Below, piece by piece: positions 1 to 31,873 of a DNA stretch of 31,873 nt. Under the pieces are notes generated by a model. It did no database searches. It had not been told where the DNA came from and saw only the letters and a list, made by a program, of their open reading frames with translations. The first letter of the stretch is position 1; each line of letters opens with the position of its first letter. Source of the DNA: a virus; IMG/VR virus record IMGVR_UViG_3300045988_079015, positions 1 to 31,873 of that record; one strand, given 5' to 3'. The position numbers were made by a program, and so were the translations under genes.

Positions 1-49
1 TAGCCCTCTCACGGCTGAATCAGGGGTTCGACTCCCCTAGGCGATACCA
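1..49 (+). tRNA. 3' portion (anticodon arm to CCA) of tRNA-Glu(CUC); the 5' part lies off-window
   Basis: The anticodon stem is tagcc/ggctg with the 7-nt loop cTCTCAc (U33, anticodon CTC, A37). A 4-nt variable loop follows. The T arm is agggg-TTCGACT-cccct, followed by the acceptor 3' strand aggcgat, discriminator A and CCA. The segment closely resembles the E. coli tRNA-Glu 3' half as I remember it. Confidence 0.6.
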
Positions 50-55
50 ATTATA
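1..55 (+). repeat. attL core, a 55-bp direct repeat identical to 31819..31873
   Basis: By direct comparison, tagccctctcacggctgaatcaggggttcgactcccctaggcgataccaattata occurs at both ends. Confidence 0.9.
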
Positions 56-3010: not shown

Positions 3011-3012
3011 GA

Positions 3013-3228
3013 TTAGCCCTCCTCGTTTTCCTTCTCTTCTGGAAGCCCATATACGCTTGTTGCAAGTGATATTAAACCCGCAAGTATTGCTGTGCTTGCG
3101 AGTACCTTCCAATTTACATCACCTAATGTGCTTGCAATTGTAAGCTGTGCGAGTGCTGCCTGTGCAACTGTCTTAACGGCTCTAGTGCAAGCCTTCTTTG
3201 TCCAATCCTTCCAATCTCTGTTTTTCAT
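3013..3228 (-). CDS. Holin (71 aa, two predicted TM helices, charged C-terminus)
   Basis: It lies directly upstream of the endolysin and has an AAAGGAG RBS. Hydrophobic stretches VAQAALAQLTIASTL and VLASTAILAGLISLATSVYGL are followed by the acidic tail EEKENEEG. Confidence 0.75.
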   Translation of the reverse strand: MKNRDWKDWTKKACTRAVKTVAQAALAQLTIASTLGDVNWKVLASTAILAGLISLATSVYGLPEEKENEEG

Positions 3229-3903: not shown

Positions 3904-5630
3904 TGCCCCCTTATTTCAAAATGTGCGTTTATTTCTTCTTTAAGAGTTATGTTTCTCGTTGAGTAAATATGCACTTCAAAATTATTTGCATCTGTTTTTT
4001 GAGCAAAGTCATTTGTTGACAATAAGAAGCCATTGTATGCGCCTTGTACTAGCGCAACTGTTAAGATTTTGAATTTGATAGGCAGTTTAACAAATATAAC
4101 CTTTCGCCACCACCATGATGATATTGCCGTTGAGTTCCCCGCGGGAAATATGATTTTACCATTGCCCCACGCATGCAAATCACCACTTGCGTACTTGCAT
4201 ACAGTCCAATTAATGTTGTTATCATCTGATTTTATTTCTTCCCTTGATATAATAAAATCTGATATTTGATTGCCTTGTATGCTAACACCTTGCCTAAATT
4301 CCGTTTTTAAATTAACATCAAGCAGTCCTTCGGTTTCCGATACCTTGCCAATTGCCATGCCGCGCCCGGATGTGTGGAAGTCCATTAGTGTAAAGCCGGT
4401 TGCTATTAATTGTGTAAATAAGGAATGCGCAAAATCATCTGCTAGCTTCAGTGTTATTTCGTATGCATAATCACTTGAGCAAGGCATTATGATGCTATCG
4501 CTTACCTTGTATGCGTTCAGCTTTATGCTGCGTTGTTCCCCATTTGTCAGCCCTTGCCTCTTCAGTGTTGCCGTTAATTCCCTTTTGTTGTTGTGATTTA
4601 AACTTGATACATCAATATCAAAAGTTATTTTTACAAAATCACCGTTGCCATCTTCTAAACCATTTGCTCTGCATCGCTCTATCTTTGCTGCATGTATAGT
4701 TGGAATGTGCCATTCAAGGGCTTCAAGCTTTTTTGTGGTGATTGTCTGCCCTTGCCTTGAATCAATTACTTTGCCTATGATGTTATGTTCGGTATTTGTG
4801 ATGCTAATAGTTTGGCTTCCTGTTGAATATGTCAAATCATCCGCTGTTATGCTTTGTGATAGCAAGCTTGCGTTATACTTAAATGTATTATTTAAAGTTA
4901 TTTTAGCCTTTGATTGATACTGCACAAAACCGCCATATTTTGCAAAGTTTTCTGTTTCGTCCTCAAGCTTAATTTCACAATTCGGCAGCATATCCGGTGT
5001 AGGTTTTACATTGACAAGTGGCGCATCAACTCTGCCTAATGAATTTGCGCCATTGAACGTAAATGCTCTTATAAGCAATTTGATATTTGAATTTGGGAAG
5101 TAACTCTTCCAACTCTCCGGCAATGTCCACGTCATTCGATCTTCTACATTCTCGCCAATCTTGGTGTATGTGTTTGGATCGTTATTTACCATCGCATACA
5201 ATTCATGCTTGAATGTGTTTACTTTTCTATTTGTAAAGATTTCAATTTCTTCTCCAAATATTATTTCTTGCTTTGATGTTGTAGGCCAGGAGGCTCGCGG
5301 TATTTCATTTAAATATGTATAGTCGGATGTTGTGAACGTTCCAACGATTTTAGAATCAAAGTATGCTGATGCTGTCAATCGTTTTGTGCCGTTTGGCTCG
5401 TGGTCTATCCATACACTTACACTGTGGATCACTTGGGAAGAACCGCGTACATAATACCGGGTGGAAAATGGATAATTTTGCCCATTGACTGTAAGTACTC
5501 CGGTGCCGTTGGAATGCTCGGCATAATATCCCGCTGTTGCGTTCATGCTTAGATACACATTAACATATGTGCGGTTATTTATTTTGTCTTGCTGTCCGGG
5601 TGAAAATCTTATGCTAATATAATATCCCAT
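3894..5630 (-). CDS. Tail fibre / receptor-binding protein (DUF859-like N-terminus)
   Basis: 578 aa and the last gene of the tail module after Tal. The N-terminus resembles the siphovirus DUF859 family as I remember it. Confidence 0.55.
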   Translation of the reverse strand: MGYYISIRFSPGQQDKINNRTYVNVYLSMNATAGYYAEHSNGTGVLTVNGQNYPFSTRYYVRGSSQVIHSVSVWIDHEPNGTKRLTASAYFDSKIVGTFTTSDYTYLNEIPRASWPTTSKQEIIFGEEIEIFTNRKVNTFKHELYAMVNNDPNTYTKIGENVEDRMTWTLPESWKSYFPNSNIKLLIRAFTFNGANSLGRVDAPLVNVKPTPDMLPNCEIKLEDETENFAKYGGFVQYQSKAKITLNNTFKYNASLLSQSITADDLTYSTGSQTISITNTEHNIIGKVIDSRQGQTITTKKLEALEWHIPTIHAAKIERCRANGLEDGNGDFVKITFDIDVSSLNHNNKRELTATLKRQGLTNGEQRSIKLNAYKVSDSIIMPCSSDYAYEITLKLADDFAHSLFTQLIATGFTLMDFHTSGRGMAIGKVSETEGLLDVNLKTEFRQGVSIQGNQISDFIISREEIKSDDNNINWTVCKYASGDLHAWGNGKIIFPAGNSTAISSWWWRKVIFVKLPIKFKILTVALVQGAYNGFLLSTNDFAQKTDANNFEVHIYSTRNITLKEEINAHFEIRGQWK

Positions 5631-7442
5631 TTAATTAACCACCTTTACAAATGATAGATTGCCGTTTTTTCGTGGAATAAAAGCAAAGCGGCCTAGTTTC
5701 AAGCTGTTTAAAAATTCGCCATCGACTGCATAAAAGTTTCTATTCTTCCAATATGCCACTTCTGCGCCATTGTCCAAAAAGCTTATTTTGTCATTGTCTA
5801 TTTTGATACAAATATTGCTTTGTGCAGTTCCTACTTCGCCAATCGTTACCCCATCTTCGCCAAAATGGAGATACTTCTTGATTTTTAAAAATTCTGCTGC
5901 CGTTCCGCTTTGGATTGCGGATATATCTTGAATAAAGCGATTGTATGCAATTTCAAATTCATCTTTTGATGTAAACTTTGATATGCCCTCTTCACTGATA
6001 AGCGCTTTTGATTCATCTTTCGTGTAATAGCTTTCTTTTAATGTGTCACGTATTCCGCCCGCAGTTTCTTCAATTTTGCGTTCATATTCGCTTTTTACAA
6101 TATTAAAGCTATCGTTCAGCTTCGATTCTAAATCAGCTTTAACAATCTTGTCTTTGTTGTCTATGATTTCTGCAAGCTTCTTGCGCTCCTGTTCAAGCTG
6201 CTTTTCAATTTCTGCTTTCTGTGTGTCTGTTAAGTTATCTTTGTTTTGTTCAAGTTCGCTTATTTTGTCGCTTACCTCTTTTACCTTTTCCGCAAAGCTT
6301 TGCGTTTTAGTCGTGATTTTCTTAACATCGCTTTTAGTCCCATTTACGATAGATTCCACTGTATCTATCTTTGCATCTTTGTTTACTTGATATTCCGTTA
6401 AAGTAGCGGTTTTGCTTCCAATCTGCAAATTATTTTCTGCCGGATTGAGCAAGTTAAGATGTAAGCTGTTAATCAAATATATGTCGTTGATTCCGTGATA
6501 TGGTGATATGATTTTGATTTTGTCACCCACCCTGTAACTTTTATATTTTGAATCGAGTGGTGCTAGATCTGCTGCGGATATTTCAAGATTTACTCCCAAT
6601 TTAACCCATTCAGCAAGCCGTTGTTTGGCTTTTATTAGCAAATTGCTTGGAAATGTCACATCGTCCCATGTTTCAGTCCTCACGATAAGCCCGTATTTGT
6701 TTACTTCCTCTTCATCCGCAATGTATTTCTTGCCTGTGATTTCTTCAATCGTTATTCGCTTGTCTGTGTCCTTATCCTCTGCGCCTAGCGGCAATATAGC
6801 TGTTGCAATATCTGCTCCCGCAATCGTTCTTTTTATGTCTGTTAAATTTAAGCCAAATTGCACGTTTTGATTCCCTAGTTTGTCAATATCCTTTAGGTAG
6901 TCAATATATGCGCCATCCTCTTCATGCCTTATGACAATATAACCGCCTAACATATCTACTAGCTTTTGCCTAATCATTGTTAGGCTATCTAAATAATCTT
7001 TAGATTCTCTTACTATTAGATTATTTGGATCTGTTACTGTTACTACCCCTAGTTTAAATCTTTTGTGTGCATCTACTTGTTTGTTGTGCGCTGCGATTAT
7101 GCCATTTAAAAATACGGGTATATCCCCTTTAAATTCAAAAGGATCTTGAATGGAATCTTTAAAATAAGATAGTTCGCCTTCGCAATAGATTCTTTTGTTG
7201 TTATAAAAATCAAATTCAAAATCTAAAACGCGGCCTTGGAAGATTAAATCATTATTATCATAAAGCTTTATAACTTGCTTTAATCTTTCTATTCGATCTA
7301 TGTATTTATGACTTGCGGGAAGTGTGATTGTTAAGCTTCCCGCCTTGTTTAGTTCAAAATCTGCATTACCGCTTAGAATTTGCAGTGCGGGGTTGCTTGC
7401 ATCATATATAGTTAGGTTGTTATACTCAATTCTATACATCAT
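5631..7442 (-). CDS. Tail-associated lysin-like / baseplate protein (prophage endopeptidase tail family, Tal)
   Basis: 603 aa, positioned after Dit. The N-terminus is typical of the phage minor structural protein N-terminal region, and a central coiled coil is present. Confidence 0.7.
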   Translation of the reverse strand: MMYRIEYNNLTIYDASNPALQILSGNADFELNKAGSLTITLPASHKYIDRIERLKQVIKLYDNNDLIFQGRVLDFEFDFYNNKRIYCEGELSYFKDSIQDPFEFKGDIPVFLNGIIAAHNKQVDAHKRFKLGVVTVTDPNNLIVRESKDYLDSLTMIRQKLVDMLGGYIVIRHEEDGAYIDYLKDIDKLGNQNVQFGLNLTDIKRTIAGADIATAILPLGAEDKDTDKRITIEEITGKKYIADEEEVNKYGLIVRTETWDDVTFPSNLLIKAKQRLAEWVKLGVNLEISAADLAPLDSKYKSYRVGDKIKIISPYHGINDIYLINSLHLNLLNPAENNLQIGSKTATLTEYQVNKDAKIDTVESIVNGTKSDVKKITTKTQSFAEKVKEVSDKISELEQNKDNLTDTQKAEIEKQLEQERKKLAEIIDNKDKIVKADLESKLNDSFNIVKSEYERKIEETAGGIRDTLKESYYTKDESKALISEEGISKFTSKDEFEIAYNRFIQDISAIQSGTAAEFLKIKKYLHFGEDGVTIGEVGTAQSNICIKIDNDKISFLDNGAEVAYWKNRNFYAVDGEFLNSLKLGRFAFIPRKNGNLSFVKVVN

Positions 7443-8077
7443 AGTGTCCCTTCTTCATACTGCATTTTTACTTTTCCGGTTCCTTTGATTTTAATTTGGT
7501 TATGCCCCGGCTTTAGCACTAATTCATCAACGGGAAAATTCCCCGCCTTTTTAGTGATTGCAATATTGCCCGCTTCAATTATGATTTCGTTTTCGTTTTC
7601 GATATTCGGGCTTACAGGCATATTTATTTCAAGTTCCTTTGTAACCCCTTCTGCCGTGGCTGTGAGTTCTATCTTCTTCGTTCCTGTGAATCTGTACGGG
7701 TATGCATCTACTGATATTGTTAATCTTTTATATCGCAATCCATCCTCTTCAGTTTCAATTTGTCCTGTGCCTGTAAATATTCCTTCAATATCATTAAAGC
7801 TTATATTAACTTTTTTGCCGTGAACAAGCTTAAATATATTATCCCTGGCCGCTTCTAATTCTGCTTTTTCATCCTTGTGTATACATAAAATAAGCCTTAT
7901 TATTCTATTCTCGTAAGTCGGATAGCCCGTTATTGCTGATGTATAATCAAGTACCCCATTTCTTCCCGGTATAGTTTCCGTTACTCTGCGTATTTGGGGC
8001 GCGGTGATTTCGCGCCCTTCCAAATATGCATTATGTTTTGATTGTAGATCTATGCCGTTAATCATCACTTTATACAT
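7439..8077 (-). CDS. Distal tail protein (Dit, Sipho_tail family)
   Basis: 212 aa, immediately downstream of the tape measure gene. The N-terminus matches the family (INGIDL ... IPGRNGVLDY). Confidence 0.7.
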   Translation of the reverse strand: MYKVMINGIDLQSKHNAYLEGREITAPQIRRVTETIPGRNGVLDYTSAITGYPTYENRIIRLILCIHKDEKAELEAARDNIFKLVHGKKVNISFNDIEGIFTGTGQIETEEDGLRYKRLTISVDAYPYRFTGTKKIELTATAEGVTKELEINMPVSPNIENENEIIIEAGNIAITKKAGNFPVDELVLKPGHNQIKIKGTGKVKMQYEEGTL

Positions 8078-8079
8078 TG

Positions 8080-11000
8080 TTATTGCCTTCTTTCGCGTTC
8101 GGATATTATCCCCATATTCTTATTGATTCTTTGCGTTGCAAAGTCTGCAATAGCATTAACATCAATAACAACGTTTGAATCTTTATTATTGATTGCAGTT
8201 ATAAGCAAGCCCATCAATTCTGCCATTTGCTTATATGTGATTCCTTCGCTTTGCTTTGTGTCCGGTGCCTGTTGTGTTTGACTTAGCGGCTTAAAAGCAA
8301 AGCCCGCTGTCCTTGTTGATGTAATGCCCGCAAGTTTAGAATTTATTGCGCCAATCTTACTTAGCTTATCTTGTGCGTTTGTTAGTGCTATTTCGCCCAA
8401 CTCTTCTGAGGCTCTCGCAACGTCTTTTCCTGTCGCTTCAAGTCCGATTGCAAAACCTTCACCACCAAATTTACCAATTTTCGCAAATTCCCTTGAAGGT
8501 GAGTGCTCATCTAATCTGCGTTTTGCCGCATATAGTGCTTGCTCTGCAATGCTTCTTGCTGCATTTGTCGCAAGCCACATTGCGCCACTTAGTCCATTTG
8601 CAAAACCCGCGCCCGCGTTATATCCCGCGTCGTATAAGCTTATGGCTTCAGCGCCTGTTCTTCCGGCTCCGCCTATTTTTTGCCCCGCAATATTTGCTGC
8701 ATAATTTGTTGCATCTAGTCCTTCAACGTATTTGCCGCCAAATAGTGCGCCTGTGTCGTATGCCTTCGCTGCTTCTTCATCTGCTTTTTCTTTTGCGCCT
8801 TTTGATATTTCGCTTGCTTTATTTGTTACATCGCTTTTGCGTTCATCCATGCCGTTTATCAATTCAGTTGCAGCTTCAGTTCCTGTTTTGTTCATGCCGC
8901 TTGGCATGTCCGCAACTCCTGTTTTAACGGCTTCGTTAAGTTTGATTGTTGCTTCGCTTAGAGGAATTTCCCCGGATAGAATACCCGCTTGCAAATTTTC
9001 GGGAATTTCTATTCCTTTTTCTTTTGCTTTTTGAACCGCTGAATCAAAATCTATAAGTGCTTTTAATTCATCAATTGTGCTTGGAATTGTATATCTTCCT
9101 TCGCGTATTCCGGCTTCAAGCGATTTTGGAATTTTTATTCCCGCAGATTCTGCAATGCCTTGTAGATTAGTTAAAGCGCCCGCCTGTATTTCCATGGTAT
9201 TGTTCCACTTTTGCGCTTCAACAAGTGCGCTTGCCATTCCTTCATAGTAGCCGTCCATGTCGCGCCCTAGTTTCTTATATGTTTCCACGAGTGTGGATAG
9301 TTCATTGCGTTCCGCCTTCTTTAGATCCGTACCCTTTTCAGTTAGTTTGTCGATTTTCTCTTTTACTTCAGCGCGTTCGGCTTCTGCTTGTGATAGCTGC
9401 TGTGTATATTCCGCATACTTTTCGAGTGATTCGGTAGCATTCTGCATATAAGCATCTGCAAGAGCGCGTTCCTTCATTGCGTCAATTTGCTCTTTAATTG
9501 CATTAGTATTATCAACAACTTTGCCTGTATTGTCGTAAAGCTTATCGCCTTCTGCATCGTATGTAAGGTTGAGCCCTTCTACACTTGCATTAAGCTTATC
9601 TACGTATGTTTGCATAAGTTGTTTTTGTGTTGTAGATTTATCCTCAACACCAATCAGCGAGTTTAATCTTTGGCGGTACATTTCTGCACTTTGTGCATTA
9701 GCATTAACCTTTTCAACTGCTGCTTCATGTGCGCGTGCCATTTCGTCTACCGCTTTACGTTCTTTATGCGCGTTTTGATATGCCGTGTAGATAGCTGCGC
9801 CCAATCCTACTATGCCCACTGTTGCGATTCCTATAATTGGTGCAAGCAATGATAATTTTGCGCCAAACGCGCCAACTCCCGCTGTCGCTGTATTCATTAC
9901 TTTTAGCCCGTCTGTGCTTTTCGTCAGCCCGTCAACTGTCTTTGTAAGCTTATCTGCTGATTCTTTTGCATTTTTCGTAAATTTTAGCATCCCACTTAAA
10001 TGTGAAAAGCCTTTTGACAACGTCCCCATGCCTTGTGATAGCTTGCCTAACGTGATTAATGTTGGCCCCGCTACTGCCCCAATCTCTATAAGCTTTACAA
10101 TAAAGTGCTTTGCTTCCGGGCTTAAGTCTTTTAGCCCTTTTGTGAAGTCTTTTATGTTTCCCACGATCTGTTTTATTTCGGGCAAGAACGTATCGCCTAA
10201 TTCCACACCGATTTCAACAAATGTTGCTTTTAGCTGTTGTAATTGTGCAGCAGTTGTTTTATATTTCTTTTCAGCTTCTGCCGTTAAGGCTTTATTTTCG
10301 CCCCATGCTTTATTTGCTGTTGCTGTTGTTTTCGAGAATAATTCGGATGCAGAAGATAGCCTCTTCATAGTGTCACTTGTTCTAATGTTGGTAACACCCA
10401 ATTCTTCAAGAAGTACGTTGAGATTCTCCCCGCCCTTCTTGGCATCGCCCATTCCACTTATTACCTTTTGGAATGCCCCGTATGCATCCTTTTCCCATGC
10501 GCGCTTAAAATCGCTTACACTCATGCCCGCGGTTTCTGCCCATGTGGATAATGTTTTGCCATTTGTCGATACGGCTTTATCAATTTCTGTTAATACTTTT
10601 GATACAGCAGATCCACCCGCTTCAGCTTCTAATCCTACCGATGATAGCGCGGTTGATAGTGCCAATATTTGTTGGTCTGTGAATCCTACTTGCTTACCAC
10701 TTGCAGCAATTCTCATAGCAAAATTAACTATATCTGCTTCAGTTGTAGCAAAGTTGTTTCCTAGATCTACAATTGCAGAGCCTAAACGTTTATAATTATC
10801 TGCTGTTAGTCCGGTGATATTCGCATACTTTGCGAGTGCGCTTGCTGCTTCTTCTGATGATAAATTGGTTGTATCACCTAGCATTACCATTACTCGCGTA
10901 AATTCTAAAATATCATCCGTCTTTATTCCTAGCTGTCCGGCTGCTTCTGCAACTGCTGCAATGTCTGTTGCAGATGATGATGTTTCCTTGGACAAGTCAA

Positions 11001-20379: not shown

Positions 20380-21180
20380 TTAGCAAAAACTAAACTGTAC
20401 CTCCCCTTTTATTCTCTTTACAGATTCCTCGCGTACCCTTTTACCGCGTGGCCACACTTTATACTTGCGTGGTTCATCAATCGCAATTTCTGTATACTCA
20501 AGATATTCAATTCCCGTTACAGGATGTTCATATCTGCGTATTGAATCTTTGTCTATGTAATAGCCCTTTATTGGTTGTGGATCTTCAAATAAAAGATATG
20601 CGTTTACAGGCTCGCGCTTGATTATTGGTGTTTCAAGATTACGGCTACATGCATATCTTCTCTGCACGGGGCAATCCTCTTCTCTGAATGTCTTTTGAGT
20701 TTCTTTGATTAAATAATTAGCAAGCTTTTTATAATCACCGCTATTATCAAGCAAGCTTGTGCGTACCCATCCTTTGCCCCATTTTTCGTTTACTAATTCT
20801 GCATTTACTGTATTGATAATAATGTGGTGGTGTATTCTGTGATTGTTATATTCTGTTACCGCCACCCACTTAATTTTTTTACCTAGTGCAGTACGCATTC
20901 TTCTTATAAAATTCTTCAAATCTTTCTTTGCTTCCTGTGGTGTTGGAAGATACTCCCCATATGTCAAGGTATAGTGTGCGCTACCCTTGCCAAAATTGTG
21001 GTTAATCTTTCTGCGCAAATTTCTTTCTGCGATAATATCATTATTTTTTCTTACAGCCTCTTCAGTCGCGTTTGTTCTCTTGCCTCTGCTTCCTTTATGA
21101 TTTCCGCTTGGCATCTTGATTATTCTTTCAATTGTTCTGCCCGCTATACATGTTTCTCTTATCGCAAAATGTTTTATCAT
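20380..21180 (-). CDS. HUH-superfamily rolling-circle replication initiator-like protein
   Basis: 266 aa with three ordered motifs: motif I-like HYTLTY, HUH motif HRIHHHIII and Y-x-x-K motif ANYLIKET. An AAAGGAA RBS is present. Confidence 0.6.
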   Translation of the reverse strand: MIKHFAIRETCIAGRTIERIIKMPSGNHKGSRGKRTNATEEAVRKNNDIIAERNLRRKINHNFGKGSAHYTLTYGEYLPTPQEAKKDLKNFIRRMRTALGKKIKWVAVTEYNNHRIHHHIIINTVNAELVNEKWGKGWVRTSLLDNSGDYKKLANYLIKETQKTFREEDCPVQRRYACSRNLETPIIKREPVNAYLLFEDPQPIKGYYIDKDSIRRYEHPVTGIEYLEYTEIAIDEPRKYKVWPRGKRVREESVKRIKGEVQFSFC

Positions 21181-25150: not shown

Positions 25151-25528
25151 TTAGTATTCCATCCTCTCTGCTATATCCTGTATTACTGTGACTGTAACCC
25201 CGTTTCCGGCTTGCTTATATAGTTGACTATTTGAGTTAAATTGTTCTGCACGTTCAAAGTATTCATCTTGCCACCCTTGAAGCCTAAAGCATTCGCGCGG
25301 GGTAAGTTTTCTAATGGCCAGGTAACAATTATATTTTTCACTCCATATTGCCCATGCTTTACAATCTTCTGCTATTTCCACAACGGCAGCTTGATTGCAG
25401 TTTGTATCTAGTGTTTGGGCAACTTGCTTGCCTACTCTCCCTCTTCTTAATTTGCTATTTGGGAAGGCAAAATTGATGCTATCTCCCTTTGTCGCTTCTG
25501 TGTACCCTTTCTTTACAGCTTCTTTCAC
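25151..25528 (-). CDS. C5-cytosine methyltransferase C-terminal part (second TRD-like segment plus motifs IX-X)
   Basis: A GTG start overlaps the upstream stop (GTGA). It contains SKLRRGRVG...AQTLDT, RKLTPRECFRLQGW (motif IX) and AGNGVTV (motif X). Confidence 0.7.
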   Translation of the reverse strand: MKEAVKKGYTEATKGDSINFAFPNSKLRRGRVGKQVAQTLDTNCNQAAVVEIAEDCKAWAIWSEKYNCYLAIRKLTPRECFRLQGWQDEYFERAEQFNSNSQLYKQAGNGVTVTVIQDIAERMEY

Positions 25529-26574
25529 TTTGATTTCACCCCCCCACTTGTGGTTGAAGTGTCAACGGATATTGCTACCCCGTGCCTATCCTGTGCCGTT
25601 AATGTGAATGCGGGTTCTCCATTTTCTTTGAACCTTCTTCCATTCTGTCTTTTGATTGTCCTGTCGGGTGTTAATACCGGAAGTGCAACGGCCGTTCCCG
25701 TTGCCTTATTGCTAGATACTCCTCTGTCCTCTTTAGCTGTTAAGCAGTTTGCAGTGTCTATTTTACGTGGGCTATTGCAAGATTTATCAATGCCAAAAGG
25801 TTGTATTACATGTGGGCTATTTTCCCCCCCACTATGAGTTGTTAGGCATGGGCTTATTCCATCGCCGCTATACACTCTATATGGTGAGGGGTTGCCCCTG
25901 TCGCTATTCTGTGTATATTGTCCTATTTGTTTAATACTATTTTTTGTGCCTGTTCCCGCGATAGGAAATATACGGGTTCTACTTCTGTTTCCAAAATGTC
26001 CGATAATGAATATTCGCTCGCGGTTTTGCGGTACTCCGTGATGTTTAGAATTGAGAATTTGCCATTCTGCATCATACCCGCACTCGGCCAACTCAACGAG
26101 AAGTCGGGCAAAATCATATCCTCGATTAATTGAAATAAGATTGCGTACATTTTCAATGAATAAATAGTTGGGTCTATCTTCTTCTTTGAGTTGCTTAAGA
26201 AGGTTTGTAACTCTAAAAAACAAGCTTGAGCGGTTGCCTTTAAACCCTCGCTGCTTTCCGGCAATGCTGATGTCTTGACATGGGAATCCAAAACACCAAC
26301 ACTCTGCTTTTGGCATGTCGGTTGCAACAATTCTGCAAACATCATCTGCGTACCATTCCCCATTGAGGTATTCATATTTCAATATCTCCTTTTGCCTTTG
26401 TTTTAGTGGTAGAGTTAATAAGTATTTTCTTTGCTCTTCTGTGATTGTGTGCATTGAGCGATAGCTTGCTTCTGCGTACTTGTCTACTTCGCAATGTCCT
26501 ACGCATTCATGCCCCGCAAGTTCCATTCCGCGGGTAAAGCCACCTACTCCGCTAAAAAAATCAATAAACTTCAT
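25525..26574 (-). CDS. C5-cytosine methyltransferase N-terminal part (motifs I-VIII plus one TRD-like segment)
   Basis: It contains FSGVGG (I), FPCQDIS (IV), ENVRNL (VI), QNRERIFI (VIII) and the TRD-like segment KRQNGRRFKENGEPAFTLTAQDRHGV. It ends 12 nt after a G7 tract (25539..25545). Confidence 0.8.
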   Translation of the reverse strand: MKFIDFFSGVGGFTRGMELAGHECVGHCEVDKYAEASYRSMHTITEEQRKYLLTLPLKQRQKEILKYEYLNGEWYADDVCRIVATDMPKAECWCFGFPCQDISIAGKQRGFKGNRSSLFFRVTNLLKQLKEEDRPNYLFIENVRNLISINRGYDFARLLVELAECGYDAEWQILNSKHHGVPQNRERIFIIGHFGNRSRTRIFPIAGTGTKNSIKQIGQYTQNSDRGNPSPYRVYSGDGISPCLTTHSGGENSPHVIQPFGIDKSCNSPRKIDTANCLTAKEDRGVSSNKATGTAVALPVLTPDRTIKRQNGRRFKENGEPAFTLTAQDRHGVAISVDTSTTSGGVKSK

Positions 26575-27079: not shown

Positions 27080-27490
27080 TTAAAATGGTATATCCTCGTC
27101 AATTTGCTTGAAGCTGTCGGGTAGTTCTTCATCGTTAAAGTTTCTTTGATTATCCGGTGCCGCTTCCTTCTGTGATTTCCACTGCAAAAATTCTATCCTG
27201 TCGGCTATAACATCCATCGTATATACTGTATCTCCGGACTTATTTTTATAGCTTCCTGTTTGTAGTCTGCCTTGCACGGCAGCAAGCAAGCCTTTTGCTA
27301 AAAACTTCTCGCAGTTTTCTGCTTGCTTCCCAAAAACTGTAATGCGTGGGAAGTCTGTGCCTTTGCTTTCGCCTTTATTGTCGCGTCCACGATCTATTGC
27401 AAGCGAGAATGTAGCCACCGCCAACTGCTGCGGTGTATATCTTAGTTCCGGTTCCCTTGTTAATCTTCCTATTAATGTAACGTTATTCAT
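27080..27490 (-). CDS. ssb: Single-stranded DNA-binding protein
   Basis: 136 aa. The OB-fold N-terminus MNNVTLIGRLTREPELRYT and the acidic C-terminal tip DEDIPF are present. Confidence 0.9.
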   Translation of the reverse strand: MNNVTLIGRLTREPELRYTPQQLAVATFSLAIDRGRDNKGESKGTDFPRITVFGKQAENCEKFLAKGLLAAVQGRLQTGSYKNKSGDTVYTMDVIADRIEFLQWKSQKEAAPDNQRNFNDEELPDSFKQIDEDIPF

Positions 27491-28336: not shown

Positions 28337-28813
28337 CTACTTGTTAGCCTCAGCCATTACCTTATCTGCATATTCTTGCCCCCTGTATGGGCTTCCTGTA
28401 TTGTATGCAGCTAGTGCCATGTGATAATTTCCGTATGTGTCTAGTAGTTCTGCAAGTATGTCGCAGCCTACTGTTAGATTTTGTTTTGGGTCTTTTAAAT
28501 CTGTGATGCCTAATCTGTCTATCCTTGCTTTATGCCATTTGTGTTGAATCTGCATAAGCCCGATTGATTGCCCATTGTCGCCAACGGCTTGCGGATTGCC
28601 ATTTGATTCGATTTTTATAATCGCTTTTACAATATCCGGATCTAGCCCGTATTGCTCTGCAATCTGCGTTGGCAAGTCCTTTTCTGCTGCAAAACTTACT
28701 TCTTTATATTCGGGCTTCGGCTTGCATGCTTCCGGGTTATCTATGGCCGTTGCTATGCCATTTAATACAAGTACAAGTGCTATTATTCCTATCGCGCTTA
28801 AAAGCCTTTTCAT
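28337..28813 (-). CDS. Secreted or membrane-anchored lytic transglycosylase (SLT domain)
   Basis: I placed the start at ATG 28813 (MKRLLSAIGIIALVLVL), which has an AAGGAGGTG RBS. SLT signatures are present: IESNGNP, GLMQI, AYNTG. Confidence 0.75.
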   Translation of the reverse strand: MKRLLSAIGIIALVLVLNGIATAIDNPEACKPKPEYKEVSFAAEKDLPTQIAEQYGLDPDIVKAIIKIESNGNPQAVGDNGQSIGLMQIQHKWHKARIDRLGITDLKDPKQNLTVGCDILAELLDTYGNYHMALAAYNTGSPYRGQEYADKVMAEANK

Positions 28814-28814
28814 T

Positions 28815-29024
28815 TTATAAACACCTCCTTGCCGCAAGCTTCTTTGATACATCCTCAATGTAGTATTTCTTTTGCTTTCCTCGCTTGTCATAATGGCAGC
28901 CAATACATACTTTTATTGCTTCCGCTTTGCGCATATCCATGACTTTTGCGAGTTTCTCAGTGCTGATTACAATTGCACCTTCTGTTGCTTCCTTTAGATT
29001 TCGTTCAATTTCGGTTTTTGTCAT
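28815..29024 (-). CDS. Small putative DNA-binding protein (Xis-like position)
   Basis: I placed the start at ATG 29024 (MTKTEIERN), which has a GGAAGGAAG RBS. It is the second gene of the early operon. The function is inferred from position only. Confidence 0.35.
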   Translation of the reverse strand: MTKTEIERNLKEATEGAIVISTEKLAKVMDMRKAEAIKVCIGCHYDKRGKQKKYYIEDVSKKLAARRCL

Positions 29025-29062
29025 TTGCAATCTTCCTTCCTATAAGTCTCTTCAATTTATTC

Positions 29063-29076
29063 TTGCGTTTACGCAA
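29063..29076. promoter_or_regulatory. Operator-like palindrome TTGCGT-tt-ACGCAA at the end of cro
   Basis: It is perfectly symmetric. The same TTGCGTTT half-site recurs three times in the cI-cro intergenic region. Confidence 0.45.
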
Positions 29077-29278
29077 GTTCTTTGGCAAAAAAAATTTCTT
29101 CCGGTCTTTCTATTTCAAGATAAATAATAAGAGTATTTATCTCCGCTCTTGTAAAATCTCCATCCCTTTTTAACTTTCTATATAGCGTTGATTCCTTGAT
29201 TTCTAGTGCTTCGGCTATATCTTTTAGTCGCTTGCCTTTTAAGGCTATTTGGGCTTTGAATCTTCTTTCGTCAAACAT
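29069..29278 (-). CDS. Cro-like HTH regulator
   Basis: 69 aa, divergent from the CI-like gene. The HTH is LKDIAEALEIKESTLYRKLK, and an AAGGGGG RBS is present. Confidence 0.7.
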   Translation of the reverse strand: MFDERRFKAQIALKGKRLKDIAEALEIKESTLYRKLKRDGDFTRAEINTLIIYLEIERPEEIFFAKELA

Positions 29279-29295
29279 GCTCTCGCCCCCTTTCT

Positions 29296-29343
29296 TGCGT
29301 TTCCGTAAGTCTATAATATATCTTCATTTTGCGTTTGTCAATG
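29296..29343 (-). promoter_or_regulatory. Early (cro) promoter with two operator-like sites
   Basis: On the minus strand, TTGACA (29342-29337) is followed by a 17-nt spacer and TATTAT (29319-29314). Operator-like 14-mers ttgcgtttccgtaa (29296-29309) and ttgcgtttgtcaat (29330-29343) overlap the start region and the -35 element. Confidence 0.6.
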
Positions 29344-29382
29344 CTATTTTAATATTTTTGTTGATTTTATGTTGTTATATAT

Positions 29383-29411
29383 TGCAAAAACGCAATGTGT
29401 AATATATAATG
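29383..29411 (+). promoter_or_regulatory. Repressor (cI) promoter with an overlapping operator-like site
   Basis: TTGCAA (29383-29388) is followed by a 17-nt spacer and TATAAT (29406-29411). The 14-mer 29383-29396 is the reverse complement of ttgcgtttttgcaa. Confidence 0.6.
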
Positions 29412-29433: not shown

Positions 29434-29895
29434 ATGAACGAAATAAAAGATATATTAAAAAATAAACGTCGCGAGCTTGGTTATACTATGAAATATGTGG
29501 CAGATAAAGTGGGAGTAAGTGAGGCAACGATTTCCCGTTGGGAGTCCGGAGAGATTCAAAACATGAGACGAAATAATATTGTGGCATTATCAAAGTTGTT
29601 GGAATTGTCCCCGAGTACAATCATGGGGTGGGAAGTTACAGTAAATCAAGATAATAATAACGGCTTTATATCGAACAACATTGCAAGTGATGATAACTCA
29701 GCTTATAGCAATTCGACAACAAATAATTATTACAGCAATGATTGTGGGCATTGTGCAGAGCCTTCAAGTAGTTATTCTGCATCTTCTCAAAATAAAGATT
29801 GTTTCTTTGCAATCTTGGATAATGTCCGTAAAATGTCAGATGAACAATTACAAGACGTATTGAGATATACTGAATTTATTTTGAGTAGAAAATAA
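29434..29895 (+). CDS. CI-like repressor (XRE HTH, no S24 peptidase domain)
   Basis: 153 aa with an AGGAGG RBS. The HTH is MKYVADKVGVSEATISRWESGE, followed by a low-complexity Asn/Ser-rich linker. Confidence 0.8.
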   Translation: MNEIKDILKNKRRELGYTMKYVADKVGVSEATISRWESGEIQNMRRNNIVALSKLLELSPSTIMGWEVTVNQDNNNGFISNNIASDDNSAYSNSTTNNYYSNDCGHCAEPSSSYSASSQNKDCFFAILDNVRKMSDEQLQDVLRYTEFILSRK

Positions 29896-29909: not shown

Positions 29910-30710
29910 ATGATTCCATTTATTGTAGGTTTTTTAATTTCATTATATGCACTTAAGATTTTTTTAAAGCAAAGAAATATTGTTCAACAAGAAAAAATTA
30001 ACGAGGAGAATAGAAAACGGGCTGAAGCTTCTGCAGTTGCTCAAAAGAAATATATTGAATCAAAAAAAGAATCTTTTAATAGTATTATTGATTCTTTGGT
30101 TAAACATGATGTTGTGCTTGATGATTCAACTGTCTTGTATCGCCAACAATTACGCGATATGCATGAATTAAAATTTAAAAACATTACACGTTCTTTTAAT
30201 CCGGATACGTTGCCCGCTTTTATTGTTCTTGATGTTGAAACGACCGGCTTAAGTGCTACACGCGATAGAATCATTGAAGTTTCAGCGATTTTGTTTGAAG
30301 ATTTTACCCCGGTTTCTTATTTTTCAACATTGGTTAACCCAAAACGAACAATTCCGGGTGAAGCTTCAATAATAAATAATATCTATGATTCTGATGTTGA
30401 ATTTGCTCCATCTTTAGAACAAATATCTAATTCACTTTTGGGGTTTATTGGCAATTGTCCTGTTGTTGGTTTTAACCTTGCTTTTGATTTAAAATTTTTA
30501 TATTGTGCCGGGATTGATCTATTCTCCAAACGCAAATGTTATGATGCTTGTTTAATTGCAAAAAAAGCTTATGCAAATTATCTTTGTTCATTTTCGCTTG
30601 TTGATGTTGCTGCCTATAATGATATATATTTTGATGCTCATAATTCTTTAAATGATTGTCTTGCAACAGGCTTTGTTTTTGAAAAAGCTATAAATGAGAT
30701 AATATCTTGA
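29910..30710 (+). CDS. Membrane-anchored DEDDh (DnaQ-like) 3'-5' exonuclease
   Basis: 266 aa. The N-terminal hydrophobic helix is IPFIVGFLISLYALKIF. All three exonuclease motifs are intact: Exo I LDVETTGL, Exo II GFNLAFDLKFL, Exo III HNSLNDC. Confidence 0.7.
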   Translation: MIPFIVGFLISLYALKIFLKQRNIVQQEKINEENRKRAEASAVAQKKYIESKKESFNSIIDSLVKHDVVLDDSTVLYRQQLRDMHELKFKNITRSFNPDTLPAFIVLDVETTGLSATRDRIIEVSAILFEDFTPVSYFSTLVNPKRTIPGEASIINNIYDSDVEFAPSLEQISNSLLGFIGNCPVVGFNLAFDLKFLYCAGIDLFSKRKCYDACLIAKKAYANYLCSFSLVDVAAYNDIYFDAHNSLNDCLATGFVFEKAINEIIS

Positions 30711-30734: not shown

Positions 30735-31778
30735 ATGCCAAAAAAATATAAATATAAAACGTCTTTTACTTTTGAAGGCAAGCGCTATCAAATATACGCA
30801 GATACGCAAAAGGAATTATACAAGAAGGAAGAACGCAAGCGCCTTGCCCTTGAAAATGGAAGAATATTAGTAAGTAGCAATATGCTTTTAAAAGACTGGT
30901 ATGTGATGTATGTTGATTCTTACAAATCTAATGTTAAGGAAATTACTTTGAGGAATTGGAAATGTAAGATGGAAAAACAGCTTGTTGCAGAATTGGGGGC
31001 AATGCCACTTAGTGCAATTAAACCTCTTCACTTGCAGAGGATTGCGCAGAATTTGAACGGATATTCTGCTGATTATATAAAGAAGGTTAAGCAAGGAATA
31101 TACTCAATCTTTGATAAGGCTGTGGAAAATAAGCTAATCAATGATAACCCCGCAAAGAATATTGTTGCTCCGGAGGGTGGTAAAACAACTAGAAGATCGA
31201 TCACTGATGAGGAACGCAAATTGATTCTTGCCACAATTCCGGATGATAGAAGATTCCAATTTTACGCAGTGATGTTATATGCGGGGTTGCGCCCTTCCGA
31301 GGTTGCAGAATTAAAAGGCATGGATATTAAAGACGGCATGATATTTGTACGTGGTACAAAAACAAAGAATGCTACGCGTAAAGTTCCTTTAGCTGAGCCA
31401 CTTAGAAATATGCTTGTATATAAGCATGGTGCAAATGATTATATTTTTAAAAATACTGTTGGCAAGAAGCTTGACGAGAGCGGGCGGCAGCATTTGTGGA
31501 ATGCATTTAAAAGGCATCTGAATTTAAAAGCCGGGAATCAATTATATCGCAACAAGCTTGTATACCCTAGCCATGTTGCAGAGGATCTTGTGCCTTATTG
31601 CCTTCGCCATACCTTCTGCACTGATTTATGTTTGGCGGGGGTAGATGTCCGCGTGGCGCAACGATTAATGGGGCATGCTTCCATTACAACTACTTCAAAT
31701 ATATACACGCATGTAAATACTGATAAGCTTCTTGATGCGGCAGATAAGCTTAATAATCTGTACCGCGTTACCCTATGA
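30735..31778 (+). CDS. int: Tyrosine recombinase / phage integrase
   Basis: 347 aa with an AAAGGAG RBS. Catalytic-region signatures are present: GLRPSEV, CLRHTF, MGHASITTTSNIYTHV. Confidence 0.9.
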   Translation: MPKKYKYKTSFTFEGKRYQIYADTQKELYKKEERKRLALENGRILVSSNMLLKDWYVMYVDSYKSNVKEITLRNWKCKMEKQLVAELGAMPLSAIKPLHLQRIAQNLNGYSADYIKKVKQGIYSIFDKAVENKLINDNPAKNIVAPEGGKTTRRSITDEERKLILATIPDDRRFQFYAVMLYAGLRPSEVAELKGMDIKDGMIFVRGTKTKNATRKVPLAEPLRNMLVYKHGANDYIFKNTVGKKLDESGRQHLWNAFKRHLNLKAGNQLYRNKLVYPSHVAEDLVPYCLRHTFCTDLCLAGVDVRVAQRLMGHASITTTSNIYTHVNTDKLLDAADKLNNLYRVTL

Positions 31779-31818: not shown

Positions 31819-31873
31819 TAGCCCTCTCACGGCTGAATCAGGGGTTCGACTCCCCTAGGCGATACCAATTATA
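31819..31873 (+). repeat. attR core, a 55-bp direct repeat identical to 1..55
   Basis: Exact match by direct comparison. The sequence upstream (31790-31818) contains no acceptor or D-arm sequence, so this copy is a 3' tRNA fragment only. Confidence 0.9.

Follow-up and report, generated by a model that had tools for sequence, protein, structure and literature searches.

A putative membrane-anchored DEDDh exonuclease encoded between the repressor and integrase genes of a temperate phage is a candidate exclusion nuclease

SNIPE is a membrane-localized nuclease described in E. coli (Saxton et al., Nature 2026). Possessing a single N-out transmembrane (TM) segment and a cytoplasmic GIY-YIG nuclease, it cleaves lambda DNA during injection (PMC13190303). 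SNIPE is constitutively at the membrane, distinguishes self from non-self by location, and becomes toxic when the TM segment is deleted; it requires a DUF4041 region for binding to DNA and to the tape measure protein (PMC13190303). The N-terminal region of its homologues is highly variable, where 66% have one or two TM segments and 34% have other modules, with DUF4428 as the N-terminal module in some (PMC13190303). Mpr (multicopy phage resistance), described in Mycobacterium smegmatis in 2025, is a membrane-anchored 3'-5' DNA exonuclease (PMC12596739). Defense against phage D29 depends on its nuclease activity, and degradation of the linear genome during entry is the proposed mechanism. The nuclease region of Mpr is unlike known nucleases, and its C-terminal DUF4352 is essential for defense (PMC12596739). 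An earlier note on the phage DNA described here, made from the sequence alone, knew of no characterized exclusion system that joins a TM segment to a DEDDh nuclease. That statement holds for this combination of domains, but the principle itself has been established by SNIPE and Mpr. Our literature search found no characterized TM-DEDDh or DnaQ prophage exclusion protein, and as its coverage was incomplete this is absence of evidence only.

Other systems share single features with this locus. TREX1 is the mammalian tail-anchored DEDDh 3'-5' DNA exonuclease that faces the cytosol and removes unwanted DNA. Sie2009 of lactococcal phages and Ltp of S. thermophilus phage TP-J34 are small membrane or lipoprotein products that block DNA entry. 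They are made in the lysogen from the repressor-integrase region and have no enzymatic domain. P2 Old, which excludes another phage, is a cytoplasmic prophage-encoded exonuclease of the ATPase-TOPRIM type with no membrane anchor.

The window, meaning the whole stretch of DNA that was analyzed, is 31,873 nucleotides long (IMG/VR virus record IMGVR_UViG_3300045988_079015, positions 1 to 31,873). The source is a temperate gut phage, and the presumed hosts are Clostridia. A megablast search of window positions 1-25000 against 50,697 phage records returned no match, and the phage itself is therefore undescribed. The features around the exonuclease gene are as follows.

20380-21180, strand opposite to the exonuclease gene: Rep-like gene
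27080-27490, strand opposite to the exonuclease gene: SSB gene
29069-29278, minus strand: Cro-like HTH gene, 69 aa, divergent from the CI-like repressor gene
29382-29395: operator-like palindrome TTGCAAAAACGCAA, overlapped by the promoter-like site
29382-29410, plus strand: promoter-like site TTGCAA-17-TATAAT upstream of the repressor gene, from a consensus scan
29434-29895, plus strand: CI-like repressor, 153 aa (Pfam HTH_3, E=7e-12), with no S24 domain
29910-30710, plus strand: gene for the membrane-anchored DEDDh 3'-5' exonuclease, 266 aa plus stop, ATG start
30735-31778, plus strand: tyrosine integrase, 347 aa (Pfam Phage_integrase, E=5e-24, plus SAM-like N-terminal domains)
31819-31873, plus strand: 55-nt sequence resembling a tRNA 3' end (T-arm, acceptor, CCA), identical to window positions 1-55

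The earlier note had placed the exonuclease gene 14 nt past the repressor stop, on the same strand and ahead of int, and the coordinates agree: the repressor ORF ends at 29895, and the integrase start lies 24 nt past the exonuclease stop. Based on consensus matches, which is the only basis for the promoter and terminator calls, the site at 29382-29410 is the presumed lysogenic promoter serving the repressor, exonuclease, and integrase genes, and no terminator-like site was found on the plus strand between 29434 and 31778. We infer from this arrangement that the exonuclease is co-transcribed with both neighbors. The 55-nt repeat at the window ends may be an attachment site and/or an overlap from circular assembly.

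The 266-aa protein is composed of a TM helix, a charged stalk, a conserved extension, and a nuclease domain. Its AlphaFold2 model has a pLDDT of 94. All of the following lie on the plus strand.

29910-29966: N-terminal transmembrane helix, residues 1-19, predicted N-out/C-in
29967-30095: charged helical stalk, residues 20-62 (AlphaFold2 helix, pLDDT 85-97)
30096-30218: conserved non-helical extension specific to the family, residues 63-103, from a 14-sequence alignment
30219-30707: DEDDh (DnaQ-like) exonuclease domain, residues 104-266, from Pfam RNase_T, PDB, and Foldseek matches
30231-33, 30237-39, 30486-88, 30639-41, and 30654-56: catalytic residues D108, E110, D193, H244, and D249

The hydrophobic N-terminal helix claimed from the sequence is borne out by a Kyte-Doolittle mean of 2.18 over residues 1-19, by an AlphaFold2 helix, and by the relatives of the protein. 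There are no Lys or Arg residues before this segment and three after it. The nuclease is thus predicted by the positive-inside rule to lie on the cytoplasmic side. The topology check that the earlier note called for was run by this rule only. The reading frame supports the anchor. The ATG at 29910 is the first start codon past an in-frame stop, so there is no start further upstream, and another Met in this frame does not occur until residue 84, within the conserved extension. The start codon, an RBS-like AAAAGGG, and the hydrophobic segment are preserved in four phages with 91-96% identity, and distant homologues carry unrelated TM sequences at the same location. The earlier note's own caveat, that the hydrophobic segment could stem from a misplaced start on a cytosolic protein, is rejected on these grounds.

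Residues 2-62 form one continuous helix in the AlphaFold2 model, comprising the TM segment and approximately 40 charged residues. A linker of about 80 residues resembling coiled coil had been proposed. The charged helix stands as far as residue 62, but residues 63-103 are non-helical and conserved. The stalk varies in sequence and length across the family, in which at least 74 aa, and at the median 110 aa, separate the last TM segment from Exo I. The extension has the consensus IPxVxV...R...MPEIKFxNITRSTN, with R78 and T93 conserved in the 14-sequence alignment. It is also present in members with a C-terminal TM (P0013 and P0014) and missing from the PDB DEDDh matches, whose alignment begins at residue 103.

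The nuclease domain has a complete DnaQ-like fold with all catalytic motifs intact, as the earlier note had read it; Pfam, AlphaFold2, Foldseek, and the invariant residues agree. Exo I corresponds to D108-V-E110 (nt 30231-30239), Exo II to F192-D193, and Exo III to H244-x4-D249; none of the five catalytic residues varies in the 14-sequence alignment. RNase_T (PF00929) is the sole Pfam match of the 266-aa protein (residues 105-253, E=4e-15, 57.2 bits against a cut-off of 24). PHROG 192, which is filed under DNA metabolism, matches residues 31-262 (E=8e-41), and the PADLOC DEDDh model matches with E=1e-28. In the PDB, the sequence matches the PolC-type exonuclease 2p1j (E=5e-14) as well as 8h18 and 8fy9. 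Foldseek matches include 8h2f, 8zef, 2gui, 2ido, and 4fzx, with E down to 4e-12 and target TM-scores of 0.74-0.82 for single-domain structures; a TREX1 homologue, 9mrc, is also in the list (E=6e-8). With both the motifs and an RNase H-like alpha/beta fold in the model, the protein is assigned to the DEDDh superfamily. The nearest relatives by sequence or structure are DNA 3'-5' exonucleases, namely the PolC exonuclease domain, DinG, Cas2-DnaQ, epsilon, and ExoX. The DinG relative is the S. aureus DinG exonuclease domain with ssDNA. DEDDh enzymes, whose 3'-5' exonuclease activity depends on two metal ions, require a free 3' end, and in this clade the preferred ends are single-stranded or frayed. 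The protein is probably a Mg-dependent 3'-5' exonuclease acting on DNA.

This gene product belongs, by sequence, to a large uncharacterized family. The best 147 family representatives, clustered at 50% identity, all match with E<1e-77, and 2154 representatives match with E<=1e-30. By a crude hydropathy and positive-inside script rather than a trained predictor, approximately 70% of these carry 1-4 TM segments, mostly N-terminal and in some C-terminal (one segment in 47, two in 49, three or more in 6). By the same script, the nuclease is placed in the cytoplasm in 97 of 116 TM-bearing members; 15 are scored with the nuclease outside, and several of these look like an overlooked second TM segment. 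P0013 and P0014 carry a TM hairpin at the C-terminus, not the N-terminus. The remaining ~31% of the best 147 have other N-terminal modules, either zinc-ribbon or amphipathic. When the zinc-ribbon N-termini of TM-less members were compared with DUF4428, only 2 of 22 gave weak matches, the best (E=3e-4) being below the Pfam cut-off. Judged by these sequences, anchoring itself appears to be selected for, while the sequence, number, and even terminus of the anchor vary.

The family extends beyond this setting. P0021, a more distant 2TM-exonuclease, is in a non-phage chromosomal context. In known phages, homologues are found outside the repressor-recombinase slot and without a clear TM. C. difficile phages, for example phiCD506, have a TM-less homologue in another genome region; in C. 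tetani phiCT9441A, the homologue adjoins attR, and a long in-frame hydrophobic stretch precedes the annotated start. A scan of genome contigs returned mostly generic exonuclease-domain proteins, with matches from residue ~101, and the family extension in only about five loci; it therefore gave host names (Ruminococcus, Lachnospiraceae, Hungatella, and Clostridia) but little context.

A search for TM-plus-DEDDh genes beside repressors elsewhere, as the earlier note had suggested, found that the slot recurs. Of 26 distinct loci, about two thirds have a Cro/CI-type repressor gene followed by the exonuclease gene and then a recombinase gene. An HTH_3 gene is upstream in 15 or more and a recombinase downstream in 16, and these counts are approximate because neighbors were picked by hand and the second-nearest ORF was taken in some loci. 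In L001-4, L005, L006, L007, L009, and L184, the exonuclease gene lies directly past an HTH repressor gene and ahead of the recombinase gene. The repressors in these loci are HTH only, S24, or ImmR/ImmA with M78, and the recombinases are tyrosine or serine enzymes. The slot is thereby retained across unrelated phage backbones, and the gap between repressor and exonuclease genes is 10-40 nt in many phages.

The content of the slot is exchanged between close relatives. The sister phage L176 has ~89% nucleotide identity up to the repressor stop, and the identity resumes 1 nt ahead of the integrase ATG. Between these points, a DUF5067 lipoprotein gene exactly replaces the exonuclease gene, which is therefore a swappable cargo cassette. 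The slot of L178 encodes an 87-aa TM and coiled-coil protein, and that of L009 holds an Abi_2 gene in addition to the exonuclease gene. Heteroimmune variants carry an exonuclease that is 96.7% identical, and a sister phage that shares the repressor has no exonuclease. These comparisons point to the exonuclease gene being a dispensable and exchangeable cargo ('moron') cassette within the lysogeny module.

The reading we prefer, to which we give an even chance of being correct, is that the protein is an exclusion or defense nuclease expressed in the lysogen that trims incoming DNA from its 3' ends at the membrane. The gene would probably be transcribed together with the repressor in the lysogen. 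One N-terminal helix would seat the protein in the cytoplasmic membrane, and the ~40-residue stalk would keep the nuclease near the inner face. Linear foreign DNA crossing the membrane would expose its free ends there. The tethered enzyme could then remove the 3' ends, either cohesive 3' overhangs or the 3' tails that recombinational circularization requires, and the trimmed genome would fail to circularize and be lost. Self and non-self would be told apart by location, as demonstrated for SNIPE, and the resident chromosome and integrated prophage would be spared because they present no free 3' ends at the membrane. Expression in lysogens, a DNA substrate, and a protective effect are what we infer. 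The defense or exclusion role put forward in the earlier note gains comparative support from the slot, the cassette swap, and the conserved anchoring; functional proof is another matter. SNIPE and Mpr serve as precedents for the mechanism, and a split of N-terminal types like that of SNIPE homologues also counts in its favor. Targeting of the protein to injection sites is unsupported because the Pfam search found no DUF4041-like region in it. The chromosomal setting of P0021, the TM-less and differently placed homologues of C. difficile phages, and the preference of the clade for single-stranded or frayed ends count against this reading.

Several features of the locus would also fit abortive infection, which we consider unlikely. 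The tethered exonuclease would be inactive or sequestered, and envelope perturbation by an infecting phage would free or activate it; it would then degrade phage and host nucleic acid, and the cell would die without progeny. The repressor-recombinase slot and the cassette swap fit equally, the Abi_2 gene occupies the same slot in L009, and SNIPE without its TM segment is toxic (PMC13190303), so such nucleases are dangerous when free. However, no sensor or protease-site feature was found in this small protein, which is anchor, stalk, and nuclease only, and a 3'-5' exonuclease without an endonuclease partner is not expected to attack circular chromosomes processively. A rather improbable reading is that the target is not phage DNA but ssDNA from natural transformation or conjugation, the degradation of which would shield the prophage from deletion through recombination with prophage-free alleles. 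During natural transformation in Gram-positives, ssDNA enters 3' end first. A 3'-5' exonuclease of an ssDNA-preferring clade near the cytoplasmic face of the membrane suits this substrate, and a review covers how mobile elements and competence come into conflict (PMC12378983). Yet competence is not established in the presumed Clostridia hosts, nothing connects the exonuclease gene to com genes, and the other cassettes of the slot (lipoprotein, small TM protein) look like phage exclusion factors.

Public annotations imply an ordinary phage replication, repair, or proofreading exonuclease. The sequence is similar to PolC and epsilon exonuclease domains, PHROG 192 is a DNA metabolism entry, and phage records label homologues as DNA polymerase (e.g., 'DNA polymerase III epsilon/alpha subunit' and 'DNA polymerase exonuclease subunit'). 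This is nevertheless very unlikely. Every NCBIfam match is far below its curated cut-off (dnaQ_proteo 57.2 against 222.7, PRK06807 106.8 against 335, and PolC 73.6 against 873), the protein is membrane-anchored and dispensable, with a lipoprotein instead in the sister phage, and the gene is on the lysogeny strand between the repressor and integrase genes, at a distance from the Rep-like and SSB replication genes of the opposite strand. No polymerase gene was identified among the window ORFs scanned. The earlier note had offered degradation of a nucleotide second messenger as an option. For cyclic signals this is unlikely on mechanism, and we set it aside, because the DEDDh enzyme needs a free 3' end, which cyclic messengers do not have, and the closest relatives are DNA exonucleases. 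An enzyme that degrades short linear RNAs or linear signaling oligonucleotides near the membrane, acting in anti-defense or as a physiological modulator of the lysogen, has only a very slim probability. The superfamily includes RNase T and oligoribonuclease, and RNase T is among the Foldseek matches, but its structures are lower in the list (target TM-score ~0.64 against ~0.82), and no defense-signaling genes adjoin the exonuclease gene. Least probable is an accessory of the lysogeny switch that, for example, makes or removes a DNA-damage signal governing induction. The tight coupling to the repressor gene in many phages is in its favor. Against it, the partner repressors are mechanistically different (HTH only, self-cleaving S24, and ImmA-dependent), and the exonuclease is shared by heteroimmune variants and missing from a sister phage with the same repressor, which argues that it is independent cargo.

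More broadly, and tentatively, the tethered exonuclease may represent an unrecognized large family, mainly in the repressor-integrase slot of temperate phages of gut and rumen Clostridia, that provides a second, independent, exonucleolytic immunity of the SNIPE type. Its members would erase the 3' ends on which circularization of an injected linear genome depends, using interchangeable localization modules (one or two TM segments, a C-terminal hairpin, a C4 zinc ribbon, or an amphipathic helix), and would be the bacterial counterpart of membrane-anchored TREX1. If this is true, location-based defense at DNA entry would no longer be confined to two recent single cases but would include a broad phage-borne family in Gram-positive gut anaerobes, and the strategy would have evolved repeatedly with different nuclease chemistries. 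Systematic mis-annotation as DNA polymerase III epsilon/alpha subunits or replication proteins would be corrected. A 266-aa single-gene system would be available for studying how an exonuclease stops a double-stranded phage genome, as well as a model for how tethering averts self-damage. There would also be a bearing on prophage-mediated colonization resistance among phages of gut Clostridia.

Against known families, the catalytic domain is homologous to DnaQ/PolC and Cas2-DEDDh (PADLOC 1e-28; 2p1j, 8h18, and 8fy9) but is joined here to an anchor and a family-specific 40-residue extension. The 266-aa exonuclease has no polymerase, helicase, or Cas partner. Identity with DNA polymerase III epsilon or PolC is rejected based on scores below equivalog cut-offs and no association with a replication module. 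Membership in Cas2-DEDDh is likewise rejected, as the neighbors are a repressor and an integrase gene, not cas1/cas2, and the homology is at the domain level only. The known defense families in PADLOC gave matches to the generic DEDDh domain and partial ones to PDC-S48, and nothing else. The PDC-S48 models have 411 and 512 positions, of which just 4-167 and 19-114 match; this is the exonuclease domain alone, and with no full-length match PDC-S48 membership is rejected. No literature was found on PDC-S48. Pfam and PADLOC detected no sequence relation to Sie2009, Ltp, or P2 Old. Sie2009 and Ltp share the genomic slot, in which sister phages encode the DUF5067 lipoprotein or small TM protein, but they have no enzymatic domain whereas the present protein has a DEDDh nuclease. 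P2 Old is an ATPase-TOPRIM nuclease without an anchor, in contrast to the anchored DEDDh nuclease here.

TREX1 shares the catalytic superfamily, a single TM tether, and a nuclease directed toward the cytosol, and P0013 and P0014 are also C-terminally anchored. TREX1 is a eukaryotic, dimeric protein with a polyproline helix, and its C-terminus anchors it in the ER. By sequence or structure, other DEDDh clades are closer to the 266-aa protein, and the resemblance is one of convergent architecture. Mpr is similarly a membrane-anchored 3'-5' exonuclease, as the 266-aa protein is by prediction. The latter is a canonical DEDDh enzyme that ends with the exonuclease domain and has no DUF4352 match, and it is encoded in a prophage cassette, whereas Mpr is chromosomal. 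SNIPE is alike in its single N-out TM at the N-terminus, its elongated middle, and its C-terminal cytoplasmic nuclease, all by prediction in the present case; the N-terminal split is also similar, at ~69% TM and ~31% other here compared to 66% and 34% in SNIPE homologues. SNIPE differs in being a GIY-YIG endonuclease with DUF4041, whereas the DEDDh exonuclease has no DUF4041, is about half its size, and is encoded in the prophage lysogeny module of Clostridia phages. By sequence, the 266-aa protein is a member of neither the SNIPE nor the Mpr family, and it is best regarded as an analogue of SNIPE, not a homologue.

The exonuclease is the product of a real gene (29910-30710, +) that begins with ATG and encodes 266 aa, with no earlier start after the in-frame stop. 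The earlier note placed its start 14 nt past the repressor stop and before int, and the ORF coordinates confirm both. The features of this region are:

29069-29278, divergent from the repressor: Cro-like HTH gene
29434-29895, +: HTH_3 repressor, 153 aa, stop 14 nt before the exonuclease start
30735-31778, +: tyrosine integrase, 347 aa, starting 24 nt past the exonuclease end
29063-29076: operator-like palindrome TTGCGTTTACGCAA
29295-29308: operator-like palindrome TTGCGTTTCCGTAA
29382-29395: operator-like palindrome TTGCAAAAACGCAA

The repressor/cro intergenic region has promoter-like sites facing each other, and three or four 14-bp operator-like palindromes of the TTGCGTTTACGCAA type lie within or around it (window 29060-29400). 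Two palindromes overlap the facing promoter-like sites, and another is downstream of cro. A scan of the + strand found no terminator-like site between the repressor, exonuclease and integrase genes, so their co-transcription is plausible.

An identical 55-nt direct repeat is found at the window ends (1-55 and 31819-31873), the latter copy directly downstream of the integrase. Part of the repeat resembles the 3' half of a tRNA (T-arm GGGGTTCGACTCCCC, acceptor strand and ACCA); ARAGORN found no complete tRNA. The repeats are either the att sites of a tRNA-gene prophage or the k=55 overlap of a complete circular 31,818-bp phage assembly, in which case the repeat is attP. Two genes past cro, in the early operon, is a lytic transglycosylase with an SLT domain (28337-28903, -; E=4e-21) and an N-terminal hydrophobic segment, distant from the lysis module with its GH25+CWB2 endolysin (1568-3112). 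The phage locus L005 has a Hydrolase_2 gene at the matching position. A replication initiator of the rolling-circle type (REP_ORF2-G2P / relaxase-like) is encoded at 20380-21180 (-). The C5 cytosine DNA methylase ORF (25525-26574, -) has 349 aa versus 474 aa in L001-L004 (L001 1232-2656), contigs otherwise near-identical to the window; possible causes of the difference are truncation, a frameshift and variability of the target-recognition region.

The same gene order recurs in six loci with precomputed Pfam annotation, from phages that are unrelated in other respects:

L001-4: HTH repressor, exonuclease, tyrosine integrase
L005, L007: CI with S24 domain, exonuclease, integrase
L006: HTH, exonuclease and, at the contig end, a 569-aa gene of serine-recombinase-like size with no Pfam annotation
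L009: HTH, exonuclease with C-terminal TM, 78-aa gene, Abi_2, integrase
L184: HTH, M78 (ImmA-like), exonuclease, integrase

Together with IMG/VR loci, 26 distinct loci were surveyed; the counts are approximate because neighbors were chosen by hand. An HTH_3/Cro-CI gene is directly upstream of the exonuclease in at least 15 of the 26, with an S24 domain in seven upstream genes and an M78 domain in two. Within a few genes downstream are a tyrosine integrase (12/26) or a serine recombinase (4/26). In L009, positions 4721-8276 encode the exonuclease, a 78-aa hydrophobic protein, Abi_2 (AbiD-like), the integrase and then a NERD + Zn_ribbon_Top1 protein, a small defense-like cluster at the prophage end.

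The slot between repressor and integrase exchanges its contents. L176, a relative whose integrase is 92% identical to that of the window, shares ~89% nucleotide identity with its exonuclease-bearing sister L173 through the repressor's final base; similarity restarts 1 nt ahead of the integrase ATG, and the intervening segment is dissimilar. Here, a 186-aa DUF5067 lipoprotein (2419-2979; E=1.5e-22) with a signal peptide and a lipobox-like LVAC replaces the exonuclease. In the more distant relative L178, the slot (2714-2977) holds an 87-aa TM and coiled-coil protein with a weak DivIC/FtsB-like match (E=4e-4). Both proteins are candidate exclusion factors. Between the window and L173, the exonuclease-integrase block is 96.7% identical and the repressor DNA-binding half differs, which places the same cassette in heteroimmune phages. 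The slot is a hotspot, and every alternative occupant is envelope-associated, the classical signature of superinfection-exclusion morons.

The nuclease domain is recognized by Pfam RNase_T (residues 105-253, E=4e-15), PHROG 192 (residues 31-262, E=8e-41) and the PADLOC DEDDh model (E=1e-28), PADLOC matching at the domain level only. The catalytic motifs are intact as the earlier note described: D108, E110, D193, H244 and D249 are present and invariant across a 14-member alignment reaching down to 32% identity. An AlphaFold2 model built from this alignment (pLDDT 94.3, pTM 0.83) has a single continuous helix at residues 2-62 (TM segment and charged stalk), a non-helical segment at 63-103 and a canonical DEDDh fold at 104-265. 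The top Foldseek PDB matches are without exception DNA 3'-5' exonucleases: the DnaQ domain of S. thermophilus DGCC 7710 (8h2f, 8h18), the S. aureus DinG exonuclease domain with bound ssDNA (8zef), PolC, epsilon and ExoX. A PDB sequence search concurs (T. maritima PolC-type exonuclease 2p1j, E=5e-14). Every PDB match begins at residue 103; thus, residues 63-103 (family consensus IPxVxV..S....R..L.DMPEIKFxNITRSTN) are a family-specific extension. Of the proposed 80-residue coiled-coil linker, a stalk helix of ~40 residues holds, and the remainder is this conserved extension.

The N-terminal hydrophobic helix was borne out. Residues 1-19 have a mean hydropathy of 2.18, with no basic residues before and three directly after, and in four phages 91-96% identical the hydrophobic segment is conserved together with the start codon and an RBS-like AAAAGGG. 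The anchor is considered real mainly because distant homologues keep one despite changes in its sequence, number and position: one TM in P0005, a two-TM hairpin in P0010, P0012 and P0015, DUF4236 and a hairpin in P0011, a zinc ribbon and TM in P0016, and a C-terminal hairpin in P0013 and P0014. TM and topology calls came from our hydropathy script and the positive-inside rule, a heuristic rather than a trained predictor, by which the exonuclease is cytoplasmic in 97 of 116 TM-bearing members. The query is predicted to be N-out, C-in, its nuclease facing the cytoplasm, and the N- and C-terminal hairpin types are also predicted nuclease-cytoplasmic. The spacer between anchor and nuclease has a minimum length of about 74 residues.

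When 1.84 billion representatives were searched with a profile, 2154 proteins matched at E<=1e-30. Among the best 147 of these (every score below 1e-77), one N-terminal TM is predicted in 47, two in 49, three or more in 6 and none in 45. At the N-terminus of TM-less members is either a C4 zinc ribbon that is invariant (M.KC..CGKKGLFLK(V/L)...G.C..C) or an amphipathic MGLFD.LFKK-like sequence; DUF4428 matches 2 of 22 zinc-ribbon N-termini, weakly. Members of these TM-less kinds include P0056, P0076, P0115, P0122, P0126, P0146 and P0189, and loci L021, L023 and L039-L052; the ribbon often precedes a ~150-residue domain without a Pfam match. P0021, a distant 2TM-exonuclease, has a non-phage context, and homologues in cultured C. 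difficile phages are without TM and located elsewhere in the genome. In C. tetani phage phiCT9441A (L010, NC_029022), the homologue phiCT9441A_78 is annotated "DNA polymerase" and adjoins attR. Upstream of its ATG (L010 3911-4018) is an in-frame, stop-free stretch of ~35 hydrophobic residues, KKYFICLITFILTFVVGLKSAIFFLISLGFLIA, that the annotated start probably truncates. No ATG, GTG or TTG start is present in this stretch, which points to a non-canonical start, an error in the sequencing or a membrane anchor that was truncated recently.

A function for this protein should explain a lysogeny-strand cargo gene, an intact predicted 3'-5' DNA exonuclease, its tethering at the cytoplasmic membrane face by interchangeable anchors, and the spacer. 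In the explanation we favor, the tethered exonuclease would attack free 3' ends of linear DNA during cell entry, and incoming DNA could then not circularize; the chromosome and integrated prophage would be spared, exposing no free 3' ends at the membrane. We give direct exclusion by this mechanism roughly an even chance, and found no feature of the exonuclease that accounts for targeting to injection sites.

Less probably, the exonuclease could instead be an abortive-infection effector or a block to transformation or conjugation. Action on RNA or oligonucleotides is another reading; RNase T ranks below the DNA exonucleases in Foldseek and fits more poorly. Degradation of a second messenger, raised earlier, is unlikely for cyclic messengers because DEDDh chemistry requires a free 3' end. 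A replication or repair enzyme would fit the generic public names of homologues ("3'-5' exonuclease", "DNA polymerase III subunit"), but no polymerase gene was identified among the window ORFs scanned, making a polymerase subunit unlikely. All NCBIfam scores are far under their cut-offs, and a Pol III epsilon/PolC equivalog was therefore rejected. The partner repressors are of differing mechanistic classes, which argues that the exonuclease is cargo of the slot and not an accessory of the lysogeny switch.

Direct exclusion at entry has precedents. SNIPE is composed of an N-out TM, DUF4041 and a cytoplasmic GIY-YIG nuclease, cuts lambda DNA while it is injected and becomes toxic when the TM is removed; among its homologues the N-terminal modules vary, with a TM in 66% (PMC13190303). 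Mpr, from M. smegmatis, is a 3'-5' DNA exonuclease anchored in the membrane, and its defense against D29 requires nuclease activity (PMC12596739). By Pfam content, the prophage exonuclease belongs to neither family: unlike SNIPE, it is without DUF4041 and GIY-YIG, and unlike Mpr, without DUF4352. The earlier note knew of no characterized system with this architecture; indeed, no description of the TM + DEDDh architecture or family was found in the literature searched, but the entry-site nuclease principle is already demonstrated in these two unrelated proteins. The concept itself is thus not new; what is new here is the enzyme class, the host range (phages of gut and rumen Clostridia) and the prophage-cassette setting.
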